Sequence record: PP328843.1
Direction: 5' to 3' (one strand)
DNA: 64,000 nt
From: Escherichia phage 215Ecol030PP
The first letter of the stretch is position 1. Each line of letters begins with the position of its first letter. A program made the translations under genes and the position numbers. Under the pieces are notes generated by a model. That model was given only the letters and a program-made list of their open reading frames with translations. It was not told the DNA's origin and ran no database searches. Positions 5,182-53,592 of this stretch are shown here, in pieces.

Positions 5182-5232
5182 CACTATATCCTTAATTCTT
5201 TAATTCTATATGCCCTAGGTTAAACATAGGGA

Positions 5233-5240
5233 TATAAATA
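5233..5240 (+). promoter_or_regulatory. late promoter TATAAATA (second) upstream of gene 19
   Basis: Exact TATAAATA 15 nt upstream of ATG. Confidence 0.55.
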
Positions 5241-5254
5241 CTACAGAGGCTAAT

Positions 5255-5746
5255 ATGTTTGTAGATGATGTAACACGAGCGTTTGAATCTGGTGATTTTG
5301 CTCGACCTAACTTATTCCAAGTAGAAATTTCTTATCTTGGACAAAATTTTACGTTTCAATGTAAAGCCACTGCTTTACCAGCTGGTATTGTAGAAAAAAT
5401 TCCAGTCGGATTTATGAACCGTAAAATTAACGTAGCAGGTGATCGTACATTCGATGACTGGACTGTTACAGTAATGAACGATGAAGCTCATGATGCTCGT
5501 CAGAAGTTCGTTGATTGGCAAAGCATTGCTGCGGGGCAAGGAAACGAAATTACTGGTGGAAAACCTGCAGAGTATAAAAAGAGCGCTATCGTTCGTCAAT
5601 ATGCTCGTGACGCTAAAACAGTAACAAAAGAAATTGAAATTAAAGGTCTGTGGCCTACTAACGTGGGTGAACTTCAATTAGATTGGGATTCAAACAATGA
5701 AATCCAAACATTTGAAGTAACTCTTGCTCTCGATTATTGGGAATAA
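5255..5746 (+). CDS. 19: tail tube protein gp19
   Basis: 163 aa ORF, two TATAAATA motifs upstream. Confidence 0.93.
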   Translation: MFVDDVTRAFESGDFARPNLFQVEISYLGQNFTFQCKATALPAGIVEKIPVGFMNRKINVAGDRTFDDWTVTVMNDEAHDARQKFVDWQSIAAGQGNEITGGKPAEYKKSAIVRQYARDAKTVTKEIEIKGLWPTNVGELQLDWDSNNEIQTFEVTLALDYWE

Positions 5747-15537: not shown

Positions 15538-16218
15538 TTATTTTAATGTTACGAAAGAAGAATTACGTGTTTCACGAATTAGAACTGATCCGTCACGATT
15601 AATGTAGTAAATTAAGCTAAATAAAGTTTGGTGTGCTGACGCGTGTTCAAAACTAGTTGGGTGAGATTTCCAATCCGGAGTTTCAGCAATCCACTGGTAA
15701 ATCCACCAAGGAACGGTGCAGAATCCTGGATTTTTTCCAATCAGCTGAAGATTCGGACTAAAGTTTTCCGGAAGAGTAAATACAGACAGCTTTTCAGATT
15801 CAATAATCTCAGCTACAGCCTGCTCGAATTTTTCTTCAACAAAAGGAGTATCTTCAATCAAAACATCGGTATTTTCAGGAATTTTATCCGTTTCTACTAC
15901 TTCAATTTTAATGTCAGATTTAACCGGAGAATCAATCAGAAGTGCTGCTTCTGGATTGACTTCTTCATCGTCATATTTTAATCCGTCTGCGGCATCAGCA
16001 GCATCAATTAAGTCTTTAATAGATAACCCATCAGTCTCTGGCATAGGTTCACTAGCGAGCTTCTGGAGAGCTTCTTCAATATCATTAACGATATTATCAA
16101 AAGATTTATTCTTTTTGACCTTTATACCAAACTGTTCAGCATATTCAGCTAATTTAGCTTTAGCTTCTTTGTTATCATCAAGAGCCTTCAGCTCTGCAAT
16201 ATAATCTTTATCTATCAT
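15538..16218 (-). CDS. inh: Inh, inhibitor of prohead protease
   Basis: 226 aa ORF directly upstream of hoc on minus strand, T4 inh size and position. Confidence 0.8.
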   Translation of the reverse strand: MIDKDYIAELKALDDNKEAKAKLAEYAEQFGIKVKKNKSFDNIVNDIEEALQKLASEPMPETDGLSIKDLIDAADAADGLKYDDEEVNPEAALLIDSPVKSDIKIEVVETDKIPENTDVLIEDTPFVEEKFEQAVAEIIESEKLSVFTLPENFSPNLQLIGKNPGFCTVPWWIYQWIAETPDWKSHPTSFEHASAHQTLFSLIYYINRDGSVLIRETRNSSFVTLK

Positions 16219-16231
16219 AATATTTCCTCAG

Positions 16232-16239
16232 TATAAATA
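16232..16239 (+). promoter_or_regulatory. late promoter TATAAATA for uvsW
   Basis: Exact motif about 30 nt upstream of uvsW ATG. Confidence 0.55.
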
Positions 16240-16268
16240 TAGATATATTTATTACATGGTATTTAGAC

Positions 16269-20015: not shown

Positions 20016-20035
20016 ATTTAGCTCCTTTATTATCA

Positions 20036-20047
20036 TATTTATAAATA
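20036..20047. promoter_or_regulatory. overlapping divergent late promoters for gene 26 (minus) and gene 51 (plus)
   Basis: Palindromic TATTTATAAATA holds TATAAATA on both strands. Confidence 0.55.
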
Positions 20048-20064
20048 GAATAAAAGGAGCATCT

Positions 20065-26338: not shown

Positions 26339-26623
26339 ACGGAATGAAATGAAAGCAGCAACTGAAGCAACTAAACTGTCTTCAATATAAACTTCAATTT
26401 TTACCGGAGCTTCTGACTCAAATTTACCTGTTACTACACCCTGAAAAATACTTTCAGTCTGTTCTGGCTTTGAAAAATTTTCAGAAGGAAAAATTCCAAA
26501 CTTTTTATCTGTTCCGAAAATTTTGATAAATTCATCATAAACCGCTTCGTTAAAAGCATTATCAGCAGGAATAACGCCTTCAACTACAAGTTCTTGACCT
26601 AAAAAGCGTAAAGAAGATTTCAT
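26333..26623 (-). CDS. hypothetical early protein (alt.-3 position)
   Basis: 96 aa ORF with SD GAGGA and early promoter upstream. Confidence 0.6.
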   Translation of the reverse strand: MKSSLRFLGQELVVEGVIPADNAFNEAVYDEFIKIFGTDKKFGIFPSENFSKPEQTESIFQGVVTGKFESEAPVKIEVYIEDSLVASVAAFISFRK

Positions 26624-26631
26624 TTTGTGTT

Positions 26632-26684
26632 CCTCATGTTATGTCAGTAAGACTACTATAACACAACACGAGGGACTTGTAAAC
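26632..26684 (-). repeat. 53-bp early promoter/leader element, copy A
   Basis: 52/53 identical to 40168-40220; contains GTTTAC and TATAGT. Confidence 0.8.
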
Positions 26685-26934
26685 TACATTTTGAACTTTT
26701 TAGTACGCGTAATAGGCATGCGTCGATTTTATACTGTTTCATTGTTTGAAGAGCAGTATCAAAAACAGCATTAATGACGCCAATTGGATTTCCACCCAAG
26801 TTTCTAAGCTTAACCAGTGATAATTTCTCGTTGACACCTATCATTACGATATGCATCATTTTATCGCCTGGCTTAACGTTTTTATTTGTATCACCGCCAG
26901 AGGTGTATGTACAAAATCTAAATCCAGGAAGCAC
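26656..26934 (-). CDS. Alt N-terminal paralog fragment (alt.-2/alt.-1 position)
   Basis: 92 aa; PGFRFCTYTSGGDTNKNVKPGDKMMHIV... parallels Alt residues about 41-140. Confidence 0.6.
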   Translation of the reverse strand: MLPGFRFCTYTSGGDTNKNVKPGDKMMHIVMIGVNEKLSLVKLRNLGGNPIGVINAVFDTALQTMKQYKIDACLLRVLKSSKCSLQVPRVVL

Positions 26935-32754: not shown

Positions 32755-33041
32755 TAGAACCTCATCTGAAATCCGTGCGATTTAACATTACCACCACCAA
32801 TGTCAGAAATATTAATTTCACGCGCAATTGAAGGGTCAATGTCAATTTCACGATTGAGTTTAATGATTGCTAGAGTATCACGTCCATTTACAGTACGGAA
32901 CTCTAAAGGACATACTACATTAACGTAGTTTTTAATCGATTCACTGGTAGGTTGCAAATGAGCAGGAAGGCCTTTAGGCGCCTTTGAGAAAACCACTTCA
33001 CAGAAATTTTTACGGGTATCAAAATAAGTAGTCATAAACAT
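32754..33041 (-). CDS. hypothetical early protein (30.x cluster)
   Basis: 95 aa ORF. Confidence 0.55.
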   Translation of the reverse strand: MFMTTYFDTRKNFCEVVFSKAPKGLPAHLQPTSESIKNYVNVVCPLEFRTVNGRDTLAIIKLNREIDIDPSIAREINISDIGGGNVKSHGFQMRF

Positions 33042-33057
33042 AGTATTTTCCTCAGTA

Positions 33058-33073
33058 AGGGGCCGAAGCCCCT
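33058..33073 (-). terminator. hairpin within ligase-region early cluster
   Basis: AGGGGC-CGAA-GCCCCT. Confidence 0.4.
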
Positions 33074-33082
33074 CATTTATTT

Positions 33083-33448
33083 TTAAATATCAAATTCGTT
33101 AAGAACTACATCAAAGATTGCTTCAAGATGCTCAGGTTTAGCTCTGTTACTCAGAATATGACGAATCCAAGTTTTAACCAGAAGCTTGCGATTAACGCCA
33201 TTCCAACAAGGATGAGTACCTAAATCACGTTGACGGAAATCATCATCTAATGCGATTTTAAAGGAAGAACCTTCTTTCGTGATTGAAACCGTGATGCCAT
33301 TTTCAAATCGCATATAAACGTAGTTAGGAGTCATATACTGTTCAATTTCGCATACTGATCCATTTTGATGTTTCCAAAGGCAGATAGTATCAATAGAACC
33401 TGCAATACCATTAGAAACATATTTACGTTCAAAGTTGATGTAGTTCAT
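33083..33448 (-). CDS. hypothetical early protein (30.x cluster)
   Basis: 121 aa; SD GGAGAA and early promoter upstream. Confidence 0.6.
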   Translation of the reverse strand: MNYINFERKYVSNGIAGSIDTICLWKHQNGSVCEIEQYMTPNYVYMRFENGITVSITKEGSSFKIALDDDFRQRDLGTHPCWNGVNRKLLVKTWIRHILSNRAKPEHLEAIFDVVLNEFDI

Positions 33449-33475
33449 TTTTATTCTCCGAGATGTTTAATTGCG

Positions 33476-33514
33476 GTACAGGTATATAATATCATATCCT
33501 GTACCAAAGTAAAC
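33476..33514 (-). promoter_or_regulatory. early promoter upstream of 30.x ORF at 33448
   Basis: GTTTAC-N17-TATTAT with 8-bp inverted repeat GGTACAGG/CCTGTACC embracing the -10. Confidence 0.5.
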
Positions 33515-33516
33515 AA

Positions 33517-33849
33517 TTATTTTACTACTTTCCAATGCTGCATGTCAAGTTTACCAACTTTTTTCATCTTCTCAATCAAACGTTCGGCACGTTGACGGGC
33601 TGTAACATAATACCATTCACCTAATTCATTTTGTTCAATTTTTCCAACGATTACTGTATTCAATTCATAAATCCAACCAGTAAAGAAATTATGAACTTGA
33701 ATTGTAAAGGTGAAATCTGTTCCCATACCTTCTGTTGTTTCTACTTCAATAATATCACCTTCAACTGCCATTAAGAACCACATAGTTTCATCATATTTAC
33801 CATTGAAGCATTTAGTTTTAACTGCAGCGTTCAGATTAATCGTTTTCAT
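33517..33849 (-). CDS. hypothetical early protein (30.x cluster)
   Basis: 110 aa; SD AAGGAGA and early promoter upstream. Confidence 0.6.
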   Translation of the reverse strand: MKTINLNAAVKTKCFNGKYDETMWFLMAVEGDIIEVETTEGMGTDFTFTIQVHNFFTGWIYELNTVIVGKIEQNELGEWYYVTARQRAERLIEKMKKVGKLDMQHWKVVK

Positions 33850-33869
33850 TTTATTCTCCTTTGTTTGTG

Positions 33870-33906
33870 TAAGATAATACTATCACAAAGGAACCATACT
33901 GTAAAC
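33870..33906 (-). promoter_or_regulatory. early promoter upstream of 30.x ORF at 33849
   Basis: GTTTAC ... TAGTAT; inverted repeat TCCTTTGT/ACAAAGGA spans -10 and SD. Confidence 0.5.
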
Positions 33907-33935
33907 AACTTTATGCAATCTTTGGAAAATAAAAA

Positions 33936-33955
33936 AGGACTCCCGAAGGAGTCCT
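33936..33955 (-). terminator. hairpin downstream of the 30.9-position ORF
   Basis: AGGACTCC-CGAA-GGAGTCCT. Confidence 0.45.
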
Positions 33956-33959
33956 CAAC

Positions 33960-34136
33960 TTATGCTTTCTGCTTACCAAAACGAGAAGCATCATCTCGAA
34001 GAACCGCACGTGCTCGGCGCATGATCTTCTCAACAGTTTGATTGATACGAGAGTTCGACCCACGCTTGTAGCCAGCGCGTTTAGAATCACCAACTTTCTT
34101 TTCAACTGCTTTCTTTGCTTTAGCTTGTTTTGCCAT
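33960..34136 (-). CDS. small basic protein (30.9 position)
   Basis: ORF track extends to 34178; ATG at 34136 gives 58 aa MAKQAKAKKAVEKK... Confidence 0.5.
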   Translation of the reverse strand: MAKQAKAKKAVEKKVGDSKRAGYKRGSNSRINQTVEKIMRRARAVLRDDASRFGKQKA

Positions 34137-34380
34137 TATAAATTCTCTTTTAAATGAAAATGCAGGACTTATTGGCATTGCCTGCGCAAGCCCTCAAGGG
34201 GAACATAGGTTTTTGGATATTTAACGACCAGGATAACCATAAACCCGTCATCATTCACATTCAAGAGGTACACCGTAAAACTGCCGGGGTCTTAAAACTA
34301 TAATGATTCGCAAATCATTAATCAGACAGTTCGACGGCTCCTCGATTTAGCTCACACTAAGGCAGTGAATCTCCAATAAA

Positions 34381-34629
34381 TTACTTCAATGTTACCACAA
34401 AGTGACGAACTGCTTTTCGCGCAGCAGAAGCCAAAGGCTTAGCATATTTAAGTTCATCTTTTTCCTGAAGCTCAGCAGCTAATGCAGTTTGAGCAGGATT
34501 CAGATGTTTGAAATAACGCAGGATTTCAAGAGCTTCGGCTTCAACATCAATAGATGCGCCATAGTTTTCGTGACCATTATTCCATGCGTTTCGTTGCAGT
34601 TCAAGAGCGTGTTGTAATTGTTTAATCAT
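34381..34629 (-). CDS. rIII: rIII lysis-inhibition accessory protein
   Basis: 82 aa; position upstream of ligase cluster and downstream of gene 31; late promoter upstream. Confidence 0.75.
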   Translation of the reverse strand: MIKQLQHALELQRNAWNNGHENYGASIDVEAEALEILRYFKHLNPAQTALAAELQEKDELKYAKPLASAARKAVRHFVVTLK

Positions 34630-34768
34630 TTAAAAATTCTCGTTAGAGATTAAAACTCGGTAGTCACGTTCTTCTGAATTTCATCTTCTTTCGACAGATC
34701 TCTCAGTTGTAGACTACCACATAGAATTGTTCGGTTAACTTATTATTCCGACACCCAATTCATATTAT

Positions 34769-34776
34769 TATTTATA
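34769..34776 (-). promoter_or_regulatory. late promoter TATAAATA upstream of rIII
   Basis: Minus-strand TATAAATA in the 31-rIII intergenic region. Confidence 0.5.
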
Positions 34777-35112
34777 TCACTTATAAAGACACGGAATAGC
34801 TTTATAGTGACAAGTAACGAATTTTTGTTTAATTTCTTTTGGCTGCTTAAGACCCAGAGCTACAAAAGGATGCGGAACATTTCGAATTTGACCAACTGGA
34901 AGAGAAGTCAAATCACCAACTTCGCAGAAACCTTCAGGAACATCAGGACCGACAGAGTGAATTACACACAGTTCAGGAACTTCACCTTGAACACGTTTAC
35001 CGATAATAAGTCCTGATTCTGTAACTTCTTCATCACCGGCTTGTGCAGGTTCAGAAACTAAAATAACATATTCACCGACAGCACGAATTGGTAGCTGTTG
35101 TACTTCAGACAT
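34777..35112 (-). CDS. 31: gp31 GroES-like co-chaperonin
   Basis: 111 aa, T4 gp31 size. Confidence 0.9.
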
Positions 35113-35168
35113 CGTTTTTCCTTTTTGTTAACAGATGAATTAATAATAACAAATAATTCTTAAAGCAT

Positions 35169-35477
35169 TTATTTACCAATAAATTGGAGCAAATGCTCAA
35201 CTTTCATACCATTAACGGAAATCAATTTGTCAATAGAAAAACCTCGCCATGCACCAAGCTCAACATCAAATACTGGAACCATATCAGTAGATTCTTTCCT
35301 AGTAGATTCCGTCAATTTACCAGTTTGCATGGTTGGCATAAAGTCTGCATCACGAGTACCTTTCATAACACGAATAGTACCATCAGACTTTTCAAAAACT
35401 ACGCTTGAAACACCCATGGACAATTTAGTTTTCAAAATTTCACGAATTGCTACTTTTTGTTCAGTCGTCAGTTTCAT
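35169..35477 (-). CDS. hypothetical protein (31.1 position)
   Basis: 102 aa ORF. Confidence 0.6.
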   Translation of the reverse strand: MKLTTEQKVAIREILKTKLSMGVSSVVFEKSDGTIRVMKGTRDADFMPTMQTGKLTESTRKESTDMVPVFDVELGAWRGFSIDKLISVNGMKVEHLLQFIGK

Positions 35478-35714
35478 TTATTTACCTATTACAGTTTTAA
35501 TATGAGTTGTTCCACGTTCTTTAAGAGTGGAAAGTAATTTTTGGCATTTTTCTAAATCAGATTTCCAACTATATGGTCTATCAATACTAGTCCAATCAGT
35601 TTTATAATACTGTTTCCATTTAGAGAAAAAATATTTCTTATACTCTACAGCAAATGAGATGTTCTCGTTAGAATAAGAACTAATTGCTGTGAGCTTTACC
35701 AAACGAAATTTCAT
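35478..35714 (-). CDS. hypothetical protein (31.2 position)
   Basis: 78 aa ORF. Confidence 0.55.
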   Translation of the reverse strand: MKFRLVKLTAISSYSNENISFAVEYKKYFFSKWKQYYKTDWTSIDRPYSWKSDLEKCQKLLSTLKERGTTHIKTVIGK

Positions 35715-36295
35715 TATTCACCGCAGAATTCGTTGATATTTTCCCAGTTTAACTTATTCAAGTTTTTCTTAGGAACATTAAACACTTCAATACCTGCATT
35801 TCGCAGAATATCATCCCAGCCAGGTTTATTTTTATCATATGTTTCGCAATAAACCAGCTTTTTAATACCAGATTGAGCTATCGCTTTTGCGCAATCCGGA
35901 CATGGAGAAAGTGTTACATACATAGTAGCACCTTCAATAGAAGAACCATTTCGTGCAGCAAACAAAATTGCATTTAGTTCAGCATGAATTTCATTTTTAG
36001 ATGACCATTCCGAGTGAGCACTACGGTGTTCTTTCGCCAAGACAAAACGATCAGTTGAACCAAATGATACGCATTCAGGCTTATGACCTTGAATGATAGT
36101 ATGTTTAGGCTTATTCAACAACCAACCTTGCTCAGCAGCATAATCACAACAGTTCACACCCCCTGCGGGTGAACCATTATACCCAGTAGAAATAATACGT
36201 CCATTCTTTTCAATTACTGCTCCTACCTTCCAGGAGCAACATTTTGATTCCTGCGATACTAAATATGCAATTTGAAGTACTGTACTCGCTTTCAT
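35714..36295 (-). CDS. cd: dCMP deaminase
   Basis: 193 aa; zinc-binding HAELNAI and PCPDCA motifs. Confidence 0.93.
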   Translation of the reverse strand: MKASTVLQIAYLVSQESKCCSWKVGAVIEKNGRIISTGYNGSPAGGVNCCDYAAEQGWLLNKPKHTIIQGHKPECVSFGSTDRFVLAKEHRSAHSEWSSKNEIHAELNAILFAARNGSSIEGATMYVTLSPCPDCAKAIAQSGIKKLVYCETYDKNKPGWDDILRNAGIEVFNVPKKNLNKLNWENINEFCGE

Positions 36296-36630
36296 TTCAT
36301 AATCACCAGATAAGCAGATTTAGCAGTTTCAACACGATAAATTTCGTGACGAAGTTTAGTTATACTTTTAATAACAGAACTAATTATATTCTGCCCATCT
36401 TTAAAGCGGTTTTTCTTATCAATAAAAACTGCGCCAGTCATCTTTTTGTGAAGCTCAACTGGATACTTCGTCACAATAATAGCATCATACACGGAAGGAT
36501 GAATACTATTCACCAGAGTATCATTCATTAAAGTTATTCTAATGAACTTTGCTGTTTCAGAATCAAGCGCTCTATGATCGCCAGTATCATTTTCAAGACA
36601 ATTATCAATTATATCAGTTAAATTCATCAT
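36292..36630 (-). CDS. hypothetical protein (cd.x cluster)
   Basis: 112 aa ORF. Confidence 0.55.
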   Translation of the reverse strand: MMNLTDIIDNCLENDTGDHRALDSETAKFIRITLMNDTLVNSIHPSVYDAIIVTKYPVELHKKMTGAVFIDKKNRFKDGQNIISSVIKSITKLRHEIYRVETAKSAYLVIMK

Positions 36631-36863
36631 AGTACGCCATACACCCTTTGTGCTTCAACTAATCCATCAAAATCCAGTTTAAGATGCGATATTTGATCGC
36701 CATCGCCTGGATTCACAATTACTAATACTGAGCGAGGAGTTTCGGTAATAACACGAACCGATGTTTCAGGAAATCGTTCAGAAACCTTATTTACTAATTC
36801 CTGTGCAAATAGTTTAACTTTTTCTTGGAATTCTTTAACAGTAATTGGTTTTTCGCTTAGCAT
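36627..36863 (-). CDS. hypothetical protein (cd.x cluster)
   Basis: 78 aa; SD GAGGA; early promoter upstream. Confidence 0.55.
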   Translation of the reverse strand: MLSEKPITVKEFQEKVKLFAQELVNKVSERFPETSVRVITETPRSVLVIVNPGDGDQISHLKLDFDGLVEAQRVYGVL

Positions 36864-36889
36864 TTCAATTTCCTCATTTGTTTTGGTAG

Positions 36890-36925
36890 AGCTATAATAT
36901 CACAACTCTACCGTAAAGTAAACCA
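36890..36925 (-). promoter_or_regulatory. early promoter upstream of cd.x ORF
   Basis: GTTTAC ... TATTAT with inverted repeat GGTAGAG/CTCTACC embracing the -10. Confidence 0.5.
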
Positions 36926-37201
36926 TTAAATCGCTTTGAATTCTGCTGTCTGCGATTCAAAACGAATGTCGCCTTTGATGACTAGCTCAGCATCAAGACC
37001 GAATACGACAATGATATGCGCTGACCCAGGATACAGTTGAATAACAACAGAATCCACCTGGTCTGGAAGCAAAGTGTTTAATACATGAGTCACTTGAGCG
37101 TGGATTCGAAGTTCAGCTGCATTATCAAGCTTTTCAAACATGTTATTAGCGATAATTTGGCTAAACACTACTTCTACGATTTTAGAGTAAGTCGGAAACA
37201 T
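36926..37201 (-). CDS. hypothetical protein (cd.x cluster)
   Basis: 91 aa ORF. Confidence 0.55.
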   Translation of the reverse strand: MFPTYSKIVEVVFSQIIANNMFEKLDNAAELRIHAQVTHVLNTLLPDQVDSVVIQLYPGSAHIIVVFGLDAELVIKGDIRFESQTAEFKAI

Positions 37202-39665: not shown

Positions 39666-40162
39666 AAAGTTTTAATAACCTCTACAATATCGTCTTGAGA
39701 AAGACCGTTAATTAAAATATGATGTTCAGCCGGAGATTTAGAAATTTTAAAGCATGCCTCAACATCTTCTGCCATATCTGATGCGCTACGATTTGGATTA
39801 CTAATTCCAAGACGATGTTTTCCCGTTAAAGGATTAACGATGATATAACATTTACAGTTGTTAATATGAACATTAGGTTGAGTCTGATTAATGAACACTT
39901 CACAGTCGTATTTCGCAAGCTGATTTTCTAAAAAGACTTTCATCTCTTCAACCGCATCAGGAAGCATATCACGGGCTTGCTCAAGACGACGATTTCGATA
40001 TTCTTTAATGGTCGTTTTCCGCTTGACTTGCTTAGCTAAATCTTTCTTAAGATCGGTGATATATCCAACTCGCCGATTTCCTTTAAATACAGAAATCCCA
40101 TCTGTAGTATCACCGTATGCTTCAACGACCATTTCAGTAGTAATAAGCTGCAAATCCATCAT
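39656..40162 (-). CDS. alc: Alc, inhibitor of host transcription
   Basis: 168 aa (MMDLQLITTEMVVEAYG...); early promoter upstream. Confidence 0.85.
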   Translation of the reverse strand: MMDLQLITTEMVVEAYGDTTDGISVFKGNRRVGYITDLKKDLAKQVKRKTTIKEYRNRRLEQARDMLPDAVEEMKVFLENQLAKYDCEVFINQTQPNVHINNCKCYIIVNPLTGKHRLGISNPNRSASDMAEDVEACFKISKSPAEHHILINGLSQDDIVEVIKTLCN

Positions 40163-40167
40163 AAAGT

Positions 40168-40220
40168 CCTCATGTTATGTCAGTAAGACTACTATAACAC
40201 AACACGAAGGACTTGTAAAC
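40168..40220 (-). repeat. 53-bp early promoter/leader element, copy B (upstream of alc)
   Basis: 52/53 identical to 26632-26684. Confidence 0.8.
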
Positions 40221-40223
40221 AGC

Positions 40224-41811
<1,588 letters not shown>

Positions 41812-48998: not shown

Positions 48999-49241
48999 TT
49001 AAACAGACTTTTTCACAATTTTCCAATCAGCTTTAAACTGATCGACGTCAGAATGGTAAATCCAGAATCCTGCGCTTTCTCCGTCTTCATAAAGAGGACA
49101 TCCATCACATTCATCTTCCCATCCCATGTCACGTAAAAGATGTTCAGCTTTTTCAACAAGTTCAGAATCTTTACCGATGATATTAAAATACCATTTACCT
49201 CTAACTTCTGAATCTTTGATGCTCTGGCGTTGTAATCTCAT
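48999..49241 (-). CDS. hypothetical protein (frd.x cluster)
   Basis: ORF track begins at TTG 49298; ATG at 49241 with SD AAGGAGAA gives 80 aa; early promoter occupies 49262-49296. Confidence 0.5.
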   Translation of the reverse strand: MRLQRQSIKDSEVRGKWYFNIIGKDSELVEKAEHLLRDMGWEDECDGCPLYEDGESAGFWIYHSDVDQFKADWKIVKKSV

Positions 49242-49261
49242 TTTATTCTCCTTAGTTGATA

Positions 49262-49296
49262 AGGCTATAGTATCATTACCATAGCCCGTTGTAAAC
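49262..49296 (-). promoter_or_regulatory. early promoter inside frd.x cluster
   Basis: GTTTAC ... TACTAT with inverted repeat GGCTAT/ATAGCC embracing the -10. Confidence 0.45.
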
Positions 49297-49298
49297 AA

Positions 49299-49592
49299 TT
49301 ATTTTTGAATTTTATCGAGCCACTTACCAAGCTTAATCATTTCTTTAGTAGCCTTTTCCATACTTCTGAACTTAACCAATAGAGGATAGGTATCGACACC
49401 CATAACTAAACTGGTTACAAGACTGTGTTCACCCACAAGCCATAACGAATACGTTTGAATATCGAGCCCGTAATTTCTGTCTTTATGGACCCGTACACCC
49501 ATCACTTCAAATTTCTCACTAGCTTTTTCTACCGCATCCAGGAAATCATCTTTAGTCATATTAGGCCTTAAAAGTTTTTCGCAAAAGTTCAA
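49299..49592 (-). CDS. hypothetical protein (frd.x cluster)
   Basis: 97 aa ORF. Confidence 0.55.
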   Translation of the reverse strand: MNFCEKLLRPNMTKDDFLDAVEKASEKFEVMGVRVHKDRNYGLDIQTYSLWLVGEHSLVTSLVMGVDTYPLLVKFRSMEKATKEMIKLGKWLDKIQK

Positions 49593-50220: not shown

Positions 50221-50324
50221 ATTATTTTCCTCTTTAATCATCAGCAGTATTGCCGATAGTTGTATAGTACCATGGAAGGACAAGGATGTAAACCGTTTTG
50301 TGAAAAAATTTTTGAAATAAAAAA

Positions 50325-53532: not shown

Positions 53533-53555
53533 ATGAACCTCGTTCAATTAGTGAG

Positions 53556-53592
53556 ATTTCTATTATATACTATCTAAATCTTAAAGTAAACA
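53556..53592 (-). promoter_or_regulatory. early promoter for rnh (GTTTAC -35, TATAAT -10)
   Basis: Minus strand GTTTAC-N18-TATAAT about 25 nt upstream of rnh ATG. Confidence 0.55.

Follow-up and report, generated by a model that had tools for sequence, protein, structure and literature searches.

Why is the −10 element of an early phage promoter enclosed by an inverted repeat whose arms change from one promoter to the next, and is it the DNA or a transcript that makes use of the repeat? The question arises from the window, a stretch of 64,000 nucleotides of Escherichia phage 215Ecol030PP (PP328843.1) that is a segment of a T4-like (Tequatrovirus) genome. Its positions 33000-37000 are ~98% identical to hundreds of Tequatrovirus genomes (RB3, phage 107 and others), and the entire window has its counterpart in T4 at ~95.4-161 kb, with 92-98% identity and a few mosaic gaps. 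A mechanical scan of the minus strand for GTTTAC-N17/18-TANNNT finds eight sites in the window, all of which have the sigma-70-type early form GTTTAC-N17/18-TG-n-TAnnnT and an AT-rich upstream region. A preliminary description had listed five inverted repeats at such promoters, and direct reading of the minus strand recovers every one of them, at 33475-33505 (site 1), 36885-36912 (site 2), 49263-49286 (site 3), 53554-53581 (site 4) and 33857-33892 (site 5). By comparison with the T4 record, the genes 3′ of these sites are the orthologues of 30.7 (33514), cd.2 (36923), frd.1 (49296), rnh (53591) and 30.8 (33906), respectively.

Site 1 belongs to the early promoter of the 30.7 orthologue (33486-33514, minus strand; −35 GTTTAC at 33509-33514, 17-nt spacer, TG-extended −10 TATTAT at 33486-33491). 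Its arms GGTACAGG (33498-33505) and CCTGTACC (33475-33482) are part of a hairpin (33474-33506, minus strand) whose helix runs on through the −10 core and whose predicted RNA stability is −16.1 kcal/mol (z −5.0 against shuffles); the expected start site falls within the 3′ arm, and the Shine-Dalgarno sequence GGAG (33456-33459) follows 15 nt downstream. At the early promoter of the cd.2 orthologue (36894-36923, minus strand), identified by the sequence scan and by the T4 record, where it is called Pe133295, GGTAGAG/CTCTACC together with G.U pairs makes a 12-bp RNA helix capped by an AUAU loop (36885-36912, minus strand; −16.3 kcal/mol, z −6.4), and its orthologues covary. The promoter scan places the early promoter of the frd.1 orthologue at 49267-49296 (minus strand); here the perfect arms GGCTAT (49281-49286) and ATAGCC (49263-49268), the latter sharing the last 2 bases of the −10, give an 11-bp RNA helix (49262-49287, minus strand; −14.7 kcal/mol, z −5.2). 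What appears as a loop in these repeats is largely paired in RNA, where the TGTGATATTATA core joins by G.U pairs, so that the helices are continuous over 11-14 bp and end in a tetraloop inside the −10.

The hairpin at site 5 (33857-33892, minus strand) lies in the promoter of the 30.8 orthologue (−35 at 33901-33906, −10 at 33877-33882) and pairs TCCTTTGT with ACAAAGGA; the latter, its 3′ arm, overlies the GGA of the Shine-Dalgarno GGAG (33856-33859), and the RNA folds at −12.1 kcal/mol (z −2.9). Four of the five listed repeats reach −12 to −16 kcal/mol as RNA, far more stable than shuffled sequence (z −2.9 to −6.4). The remaining one, a weak AGATTT/AAATCT repeat at the rnh promoter (53554-53581, minus strand; −35 at 53586-53591), reaches −2.8 kcal/mol with z +0.4, no better than shuffles, and taken alone is indistinguishable from chance; its place in the original list was not borne out.

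Two further repeats, at 40164-40214 and 26625-26666, were missing from that list. The former, at the promoter of the alc orthologue (minus strand; −35 at 40215-40220), combines AAGTCCT/AGGACTT with an inner helix; its Shine-Dalgarno GAGGA is fully paired, and the RNA fold of 40159-40219 amounts to −24.4 kcal/mol (z −5.7). The latter belongs to a paralogous promoter cassette (26634-26671, minus strand; −35 at 26679-26684) with 59/70 positions identical to 40156-40226, which retains the inner helix and leaves the Shine-Dalgarno free (−15.4 kcal/mol, z −3.1). The two copies of the duplicated cassette (26620-26690 and 40156-40226, minus strand) thus differ in that only the 40.2-kb copy pairs its Shine-Dalgarno; window positions 26631-26684 are 100% identical to the T4 promoter 5′ of alc. 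An early-type promoter at 50264-50293 (minus strand) provides a negative example, its longest embracing repeat being 4 bp.

The hairpins share a layout in which the 5′ arm occupies the promoter spacer (~−28 to −18) and the 3′ arm either runs from just past the −10 over the start site, placed at the usual 7-nt distance, or lies lower down, over the Shine-Dalgarno. Sums of paired coordinates split them into two groups. In class A, to which sites 1-3 belong, the midpoint of the helix falls within the −10 (sum +1 or +2) and the arms abut the constrained core; the 3′ arm lies across the expected start site and is separated from the Shine-Dalgarno by 1-18 nt, with one outlier at 27 nt. In class B, represented by site 5 and 40164-40214, the helix centre is displaced downstream by 5-8 nt, the 5′ arm follows directly on the −35 and reads like an anti-Shine-Dalgarno (TCTCC...), and the 3′ arm holds GGAGA; the stems measure 9-15 bp, with many compensatory variants.

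Are such repeats more frequent than expected? Counting as embracing a repeat with one arm in the promoter spacer and the other downstream of the −10, the longest perfect examples at the eight window promoters measure 8, 8, 7, 7, 7, 6, 6 and 4 bp. The corresponding background probabilities, taken over all 3230 TANNNT hexamers in the window, are 0.26 for at least 6 bp, 0.093 for at least 7 bp and 0.030 for at least 8 bp, which gives a binomial probability of ~3-5e-4 for a set in which two of the eight promoters are paralogues. Applying the same promoter rule to the whole T4 genome yields 42 sites, all on the minus strand, 16 of which carry a repeat of at least 7 bp (3.9 expected, binomial p 5e-7); repeats of at least 8 bp are found at 8/42 (1.4 expected) and of at least 10 bp at 5/42 (0.2 expected), the best stems being those of the ipII and mobD.2 promoters, with 14 bp and 8-nt loops. 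When spacer and downstream flank of the T4 promoters are shuffled around a fixed core, 300 trials yield on average 2.6 sites with at least 7 bp and never more than 7, so that the scan of predicted early promoters against shuffled controls, proposed with the original list, returns a clear excess at the −10. Moving the anchor by 15-120 nt in either direction lowers the T4 count to background (0-4), and structures wholly within the promoter's own 5′UTR do not exceed background (a shift of +30 gives 0/42). Such a hairpin is missing from about half of the early promoters. Enrichment is weaker at T4 late promoters (TATAAATA; 8/32, including the known cases of e and I-TevII/III) and absent at MotA-type middle promoters of T4, where 2/35 have a repeat of at least 7 bp.

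Wider sampling gave the same picture. Scanning IMG/VR with gp30.7 and with dCMP deaminase retrieved 56 loci (cd identity 61-100%), and T4, the window and 50+ related contigs together supplied 184 unique promoter segments; 36% of these have a repeat of at least 8 bp and 23% one of at least 10 bp, compared to 2.5% and 0.5% of the null set. Chance repeats in AT-rich DNA are the best reading for 53554-53581 alone, with its z of +0.4, and a 6-bp embracing repeat does occur at 26% of TANNNT hexamers; as an account of the whole set, chance has next to no probability and is already refuted by an enrichment that is set-wide and genome-wide, positionally specific and backed by covariation.

This covariation, which the preliminary description had named as a check, is present at the cd.2-type promoters. 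Their stems occupy a single register and read GGTAGAG/CTCTACC, GGTGGAGTT/AACTCTACC, YGGTAGGACT/AGTCCTACCR and CCGGAAGT/ACTTCCGG, with series of U-A, U.G and C-G pairs at single positions; in two lineages the stem is lost. In an ungapped alignment of 14 cd.2-type promoters, 75.9% of the cells are paired, against 61.8% after shuffling and at most 57.6% on sliding, and 10/16 pairs have changed on both sides; double changes occupy 35 cells versus 14 expected, a value matched by 0/500 shuffles, although the members were hand-picked and the structure was derived from them, which biases the count toward structure. Orthologues are, moreover, non-independent, so that the p-values are optimistic. An evolutionary count of 38 wobble events versus 20 A.C events is suggestive only, and the static count of G.U versus A.C in extended stems, 12 versus 10, is not significant. 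At the 30.7 promoter the arms GGTACAGG/CCTGTACC are invariant in relatives, with a stem lengthened to 12 bp in phages further removed, while loop and flanks diverge.

That orthologous promoters keep the pairing with differing arms indicates that it is the structure that is under selection, as had been proposed from the fact that the arms differ at each site, rather than a shared protein site. The same observation bears on palindromic operators for dimeric DNA-binding regulators over the −10. Repressor operators typically overlap this element; here, however, the arms differ per promoter and change between orthologues with pairing kept, and there is no common half-site, which makes operators a highly improbable explanation. 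A non-adaptive origin can also be envisaged, whereby the near-palindromic TG-extended −10 seeds intrastrand pairing as the DNA replicates and templated (quasi-palindrome) mutation extends the palindrome outwards, so that changes look compensatory without functional selection. Templated mutation is well documented in T4, the core is self-complementary with G.U pairs, and the register of class A is fixed and centred on the promoter core (sums of +1/+2 in 32/84). We nevertheless regard such a by-product as distinctly unlikely: enrichment is absent from middle promoters (2/35 with at least 7 bp), whose −10 and TGn are no different, arms are conserved beside a diverging loop and flanks, and the class B helices, which lie 5-8 nt further downstream and pair the Shine-Dalgarno, are left unexplained, as is the relation to terminators described below.

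The presence of the repeat at a promoter is linked to what lies upstream. With a canonical terminator within 100 nt upstream, a repeat of at least 7 bp is found in 4/33 promoters, and without one in 80/151 (Fisher p 1.3e-5); by promoter family the figures are 1/16 and 28/68 (Fisher p 0.008), and mean repeat length is 5.1 bp, the background value, in the former case and 7.6 bp in the latter. The sole family with both terminator and repeat is that of the class B promoter of 30.8, which in the window has directly 5′ of it a canonical intrinsic terminator (33935-33956, minus strand; GAGGACTCC-TTCG-GGAGTCCTT followed by a T-run). The near-exclusion of repeat and terminator ties the repeat to read-through RNA and not to promoter DNA, since a property of the promoter DNA would be independent of whether upstream transcription is stopped; it thereby supports hairpins acting in read-through transcripts, one of the roles originally suggested.

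A canonical-terminator reading of the embedded hairpins was considered and ruled out, because they lack U-tracts: the 8 nt past the stem contain on average 1.4 T, with no case of 5 or more, and the tails are 53% A. Like intrinsic terminators, they are stable hairpins at the 3′ border of a transcription unit, and the two types replace one another; unlike these, which consist of a GC-rich hairpin and a U-tract, they end in the A-rich tails just described. The rnh promoter is divergent from gene 34 and thus free of co-directional read-through. Repeats at this first promoter are weak or absent in four lineages (6, 4, at most 4 and 6 bp in the orthologues), in the direction predicted with an n that is too small. 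One distant lineage among the rnh loci L064-L069, namely L069, carries another 6-bp repeat, ACTCAG/CTGAGT, in this place.

Folding alone leaves the choice between RNA and DNA undecided. Across the T4 promoters the sense strand folds slightly better than the antisense strand (−9.8 versus −8.1 kcal/mol, p 0.006), with similar z (−1.64 versus −1.32), so that strand specificity is only suggestive. A DNA-level element could be a hairpin or cruciform that adjusts how the promoter melts or is shut off, or else a hot spot at which recombination or template switching reassorts cassettes of promoter and ORF, as in the 'modular shuffling' idea connected with promoter-early stem-loops. Such an element would agree with the near-equal folding of the two strands and with several signs of rearrangement. 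The old T4 clone X03007.1 has the exact 14-nt inter-arm segment of the cd.2 promoter inverted, which suggests that the arms are able to mediate rearrangement; the frd.2-frd.1 promoter-plus-ORF modules differ between T4 and the window; one promoter cassette is present twice, at 26.6 and at 40.2 kb; and mini-circles between elements of this kind are described in the literature on promoter-early stem-loops (PMC2839356). DNA cruciforms modulating promoter melting, as suggested in the preliminary description, are implausible on energetic grounds: extrusion calls for a near-perfect palindrome with a very short centre, whereas the Watson-Crick arms of 6-8 bp are 12-20 bp apart and the single-stranded DNA hairpins reach only −5 to −8 kcal/mol. 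Nor does a DNA-level role predict the near absence of the repeat below an upstream terminator or the anti-Shine-Dalgarno/Shine-Dalgarno arms; the inverted loop is found in 0 of ~660 phage genomes, and a mosaic junction with T4 coincides with only 1/8 window promoters. We therefore judge an action in DNA to be unlikely. The pairing of the ribosome-binding site by class B arms favours RNA arriving from upstream, and, taken together, the feature is real and under selection and probably acts at the RNA level.

The inversion itself is recorded in the T4 genome (NC_000866), where a misc_feature at 133300-133313 reads 'inverted complement of previously reported sequence; corrects the early promoter Pe133295'; the annotated 14 nt coincide exactly with the segment that the two arms enclose at the cd.2 promoter (window repeat 36885-36912). 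A natural flip-flop of the −10 between the arms was considered and rejected, the inversion being confined to the 1980s clone X03007.1, with ~660 genomes in promoter orientation; the clone probably reflects either an arm-mediated inversion that was selected when a toxic promoter was cloned or a sequencing error. The frd.2-frd.1 interval (window 49256-49567, T4 146019-146149) has the look of an exchanged cassette: in T4 an early promoter precedes an apparently unannotated ORF of 22 aa (MFAPYIMAAVMLVCLYLLIKAC), and in the window an ORF of 86 aa (MTKDDFLDAVEK...) precedes a different early promoter.

How do these elements relate to known ones? The repeats are a T4-lineage member of a described class, the promoter-early stem-loops (PeSLs). 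According to the abstracts, legends and matched passages of the two papers concerned, PeSLs of RB49 and phi1 are early promoters with a stem-loop located mostly in the −35/−10 interval or over the −10 (Arbiol et al. 2010, PMC2839356), with terminator-like activity demonstrated for one RB49 stem-loop only; Comeau et al. 2014 (PMC4122927) extended the class to PST/T4, with stem-loops just 5′ of the promoter. The window promoters fit the PST/T4 consensus TTTACW-N17-TAYWAT given in those passages (PMC4122927), and the elements share the described order of early promoter, AT-rich upstream region, stem-loop, Shine-Dalgarno, ATG of a small and mostly uncharacterised ORF, and variable region: the sites 5′ of the 30.7, 30.8, cd.2 and frd.1 orthologues are intergenic and are followed by a Shine-Dalgarno and a small ORF. 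A stem-loop inside or next to the promoter, for which the same material distinguishes five positional subclasses, overlap with the −10 included (PMC2839356), is likewise found here. The position described for the PST/T4 stem-loops (PMC4122927) corresponds in the window to the terminator at 33935-33956, which together with the 30.8 promoter makes up a PST/T4-style arrangement.

PeSLs are further linked, in the same passages, to ORF swaps between close relatives; near the window sites there is one clear case, at site 3 (frd.2-frd.1), besides the duplicated cassette, the other sites lying in collinear blocks. The stems themselves differ from those reported, which are Gn-loop-Cn (G-run/C-run) in RB49 and AGNA-loop-TCNT in PST/T4: the arms studied here are idiosyncratic, embrace the −10 and are without a U-tract, and among the stems of the window only the terminator at 33935-33956 resembles the characteristic sequence (AGGA...TCCT). 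With respect to the terminator or attenuator function of PeSLs, the near-exclusive alternation with upstream terminators fits an equivalent role despite the missing U-tract. Shine-Dalgarno masking and terminator exclusivity are not mentioned in the abstracts, legends and matched passages of PMC2839356 and PMC4122927; relative to that text, a subclass that masks the ribosome site at early promoters and the exclusivity with terminators are additions. Repeats around the early-promoter −10 go unmentioned in T4 reviews of early transcription and post-transcriptional control, and the literature yielded no usable T4 transcript-end maps spanning these sites.

A second parallel is provided by the T4 switches in which a promoter sits within a hairpin, namely e, soc, 49 and I-TevI/II/III (PMC3014915, PMC2988022). 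As in e, soc and I-TevI, the 5′ arm lies above the internal start site and would be lacking from the internal promoter's own transcript, given the start site expected at the usual distance, and at 33857-33892 and 40164-40214 the long RNA is predicted to hide the Shine-Dalgarno that the promoter-proximal RNA exposes. The differences are that the internal promoter is here an early sigma-70 promoter instead of a late one (TATAAATA) serving a late gene, hairpins that sequester the ribosome-binding site being 'all late genes' according to a review (PMC2988022), and that the Shine-Dalgarno is outside the helix in sites 1-3. The preliminary suggestion of ribosome-site occlusion accordingly holds in part: in the folded long transcript the Shine-Dalgarno is paired at site 5 and at 40164-40214, while at sites 1-4 the Shine-Dalgarno is located ~9-18 nt beyond the helix and, at sites 1-3, is free. 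For the Shine-Dalgarno, the probability of being unpaired is predicted to be 0.57 when the RNA starts at the promoter itself and 0.32 when it reads through; in T4 alone, occlusion in read-through RNA (0.39) is not above that of control genes (0.40). Occlusion thus fits class B and was rejected as a general role, failing as it does across T4.

Intercistronic stabilising or processing hairpins, such as the REP elements of E. coli and the RNase III sites of T7 early RNA, offer a third comparison. Like these, the hairpins stand between cistrons of a polycistronic mRNA and, by analogy, could stop 3′ exonucleases once the RNA has been cut further down; at 11-14 bp the helices fall short of the usual length of RNase III substrates, and they are embedded in a promoter. 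Putative RegB sites follow sites 1, 5 and 3: the Shine-Dalgarno regions at 33449-33459, 33849-33859 and ~49241-49251 (minus strand) read GGAGAATAAAA and agree at every position with GGAGRAYARAA, the consensus for RegB cleavage given in PMC3014915. According to this review, RNA that is folded into secondary structure is protected from RegB.

These comparisons lead us to favour, with moderate confidence, the reading that the repeats are promoter-embedded stem-loops of the PeSL type, with the hairpin serving as mark and insulator of read-through RNA where each early-gene cassette begins or ends, in place of an intrinsic terminator. RNA initiated at the promoter would begin downstream of the 5′ arm, if the start site is where its usual distance places it, and have an open leader; RNA reading through from an upstream early promoter would contain both arms and fold, so that only read-through RNA should adopt the hairpin. 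In class B, folding would mask the ribosome-binding site, which is also the GGAG target of RegB, and the gene would be translated only from its own promoter, so that an early promoter would follow the logic of e, soc and I-TevI. For sites 1-3, of class A, an intercistronic barrier is the most likely role of the hairpin, candidates for its action being 3′-end protection or processing of the upstream message, or a non-canonical attenuator. More tentatively, and with somewhat more doubt than belief, the embedded hairpin might be a general and maintained alternative to a terminator that reports the origin of an RNA, upstream RNA being folded, with ribosome and RegB sites masked or its 3′ end capped, and the promoter's own RNA being open.

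If this were so, the switch of e, soc and I-TevI, confined to late genes according to the reviews, would reach a large share of early genes, and each early-gene cassette would be autonomous in expression at any place of insertion, carrying both a promoter and a device that neutralises transcripts from the neighbouring cassette. The correct expression of small early genes after their shuffling between the genomes of T4-like phages would thereby be explained. The rule that a promoter has either an embedded hairpin or an upstream terminator, and rarely both, could aid the annotation of transcription units in hundreds of T4-like phages, and ~15 T4 promoters are flagged at which read-through and promoter-proximal RNAs should behave differently. 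Since T4 is well studied and the class of element has a name, the gain is one of refinement rather than discovery.

Late promoters of the window also lie within repeats. Late motifs (TATAAATA) are found inside repeats of 7-8 bp at 20021-20060 (both strands), 34744-34798 (minus strand), 5222-5260 (plus strand) and 16209-16245 (plus strand). The repeat at 20021-20060, GCTCCTTT/AAAGGAGC, is common to the two divergent late promoters of genes 51 and 26 and holds both of their Shine-Dalgarno sequences.
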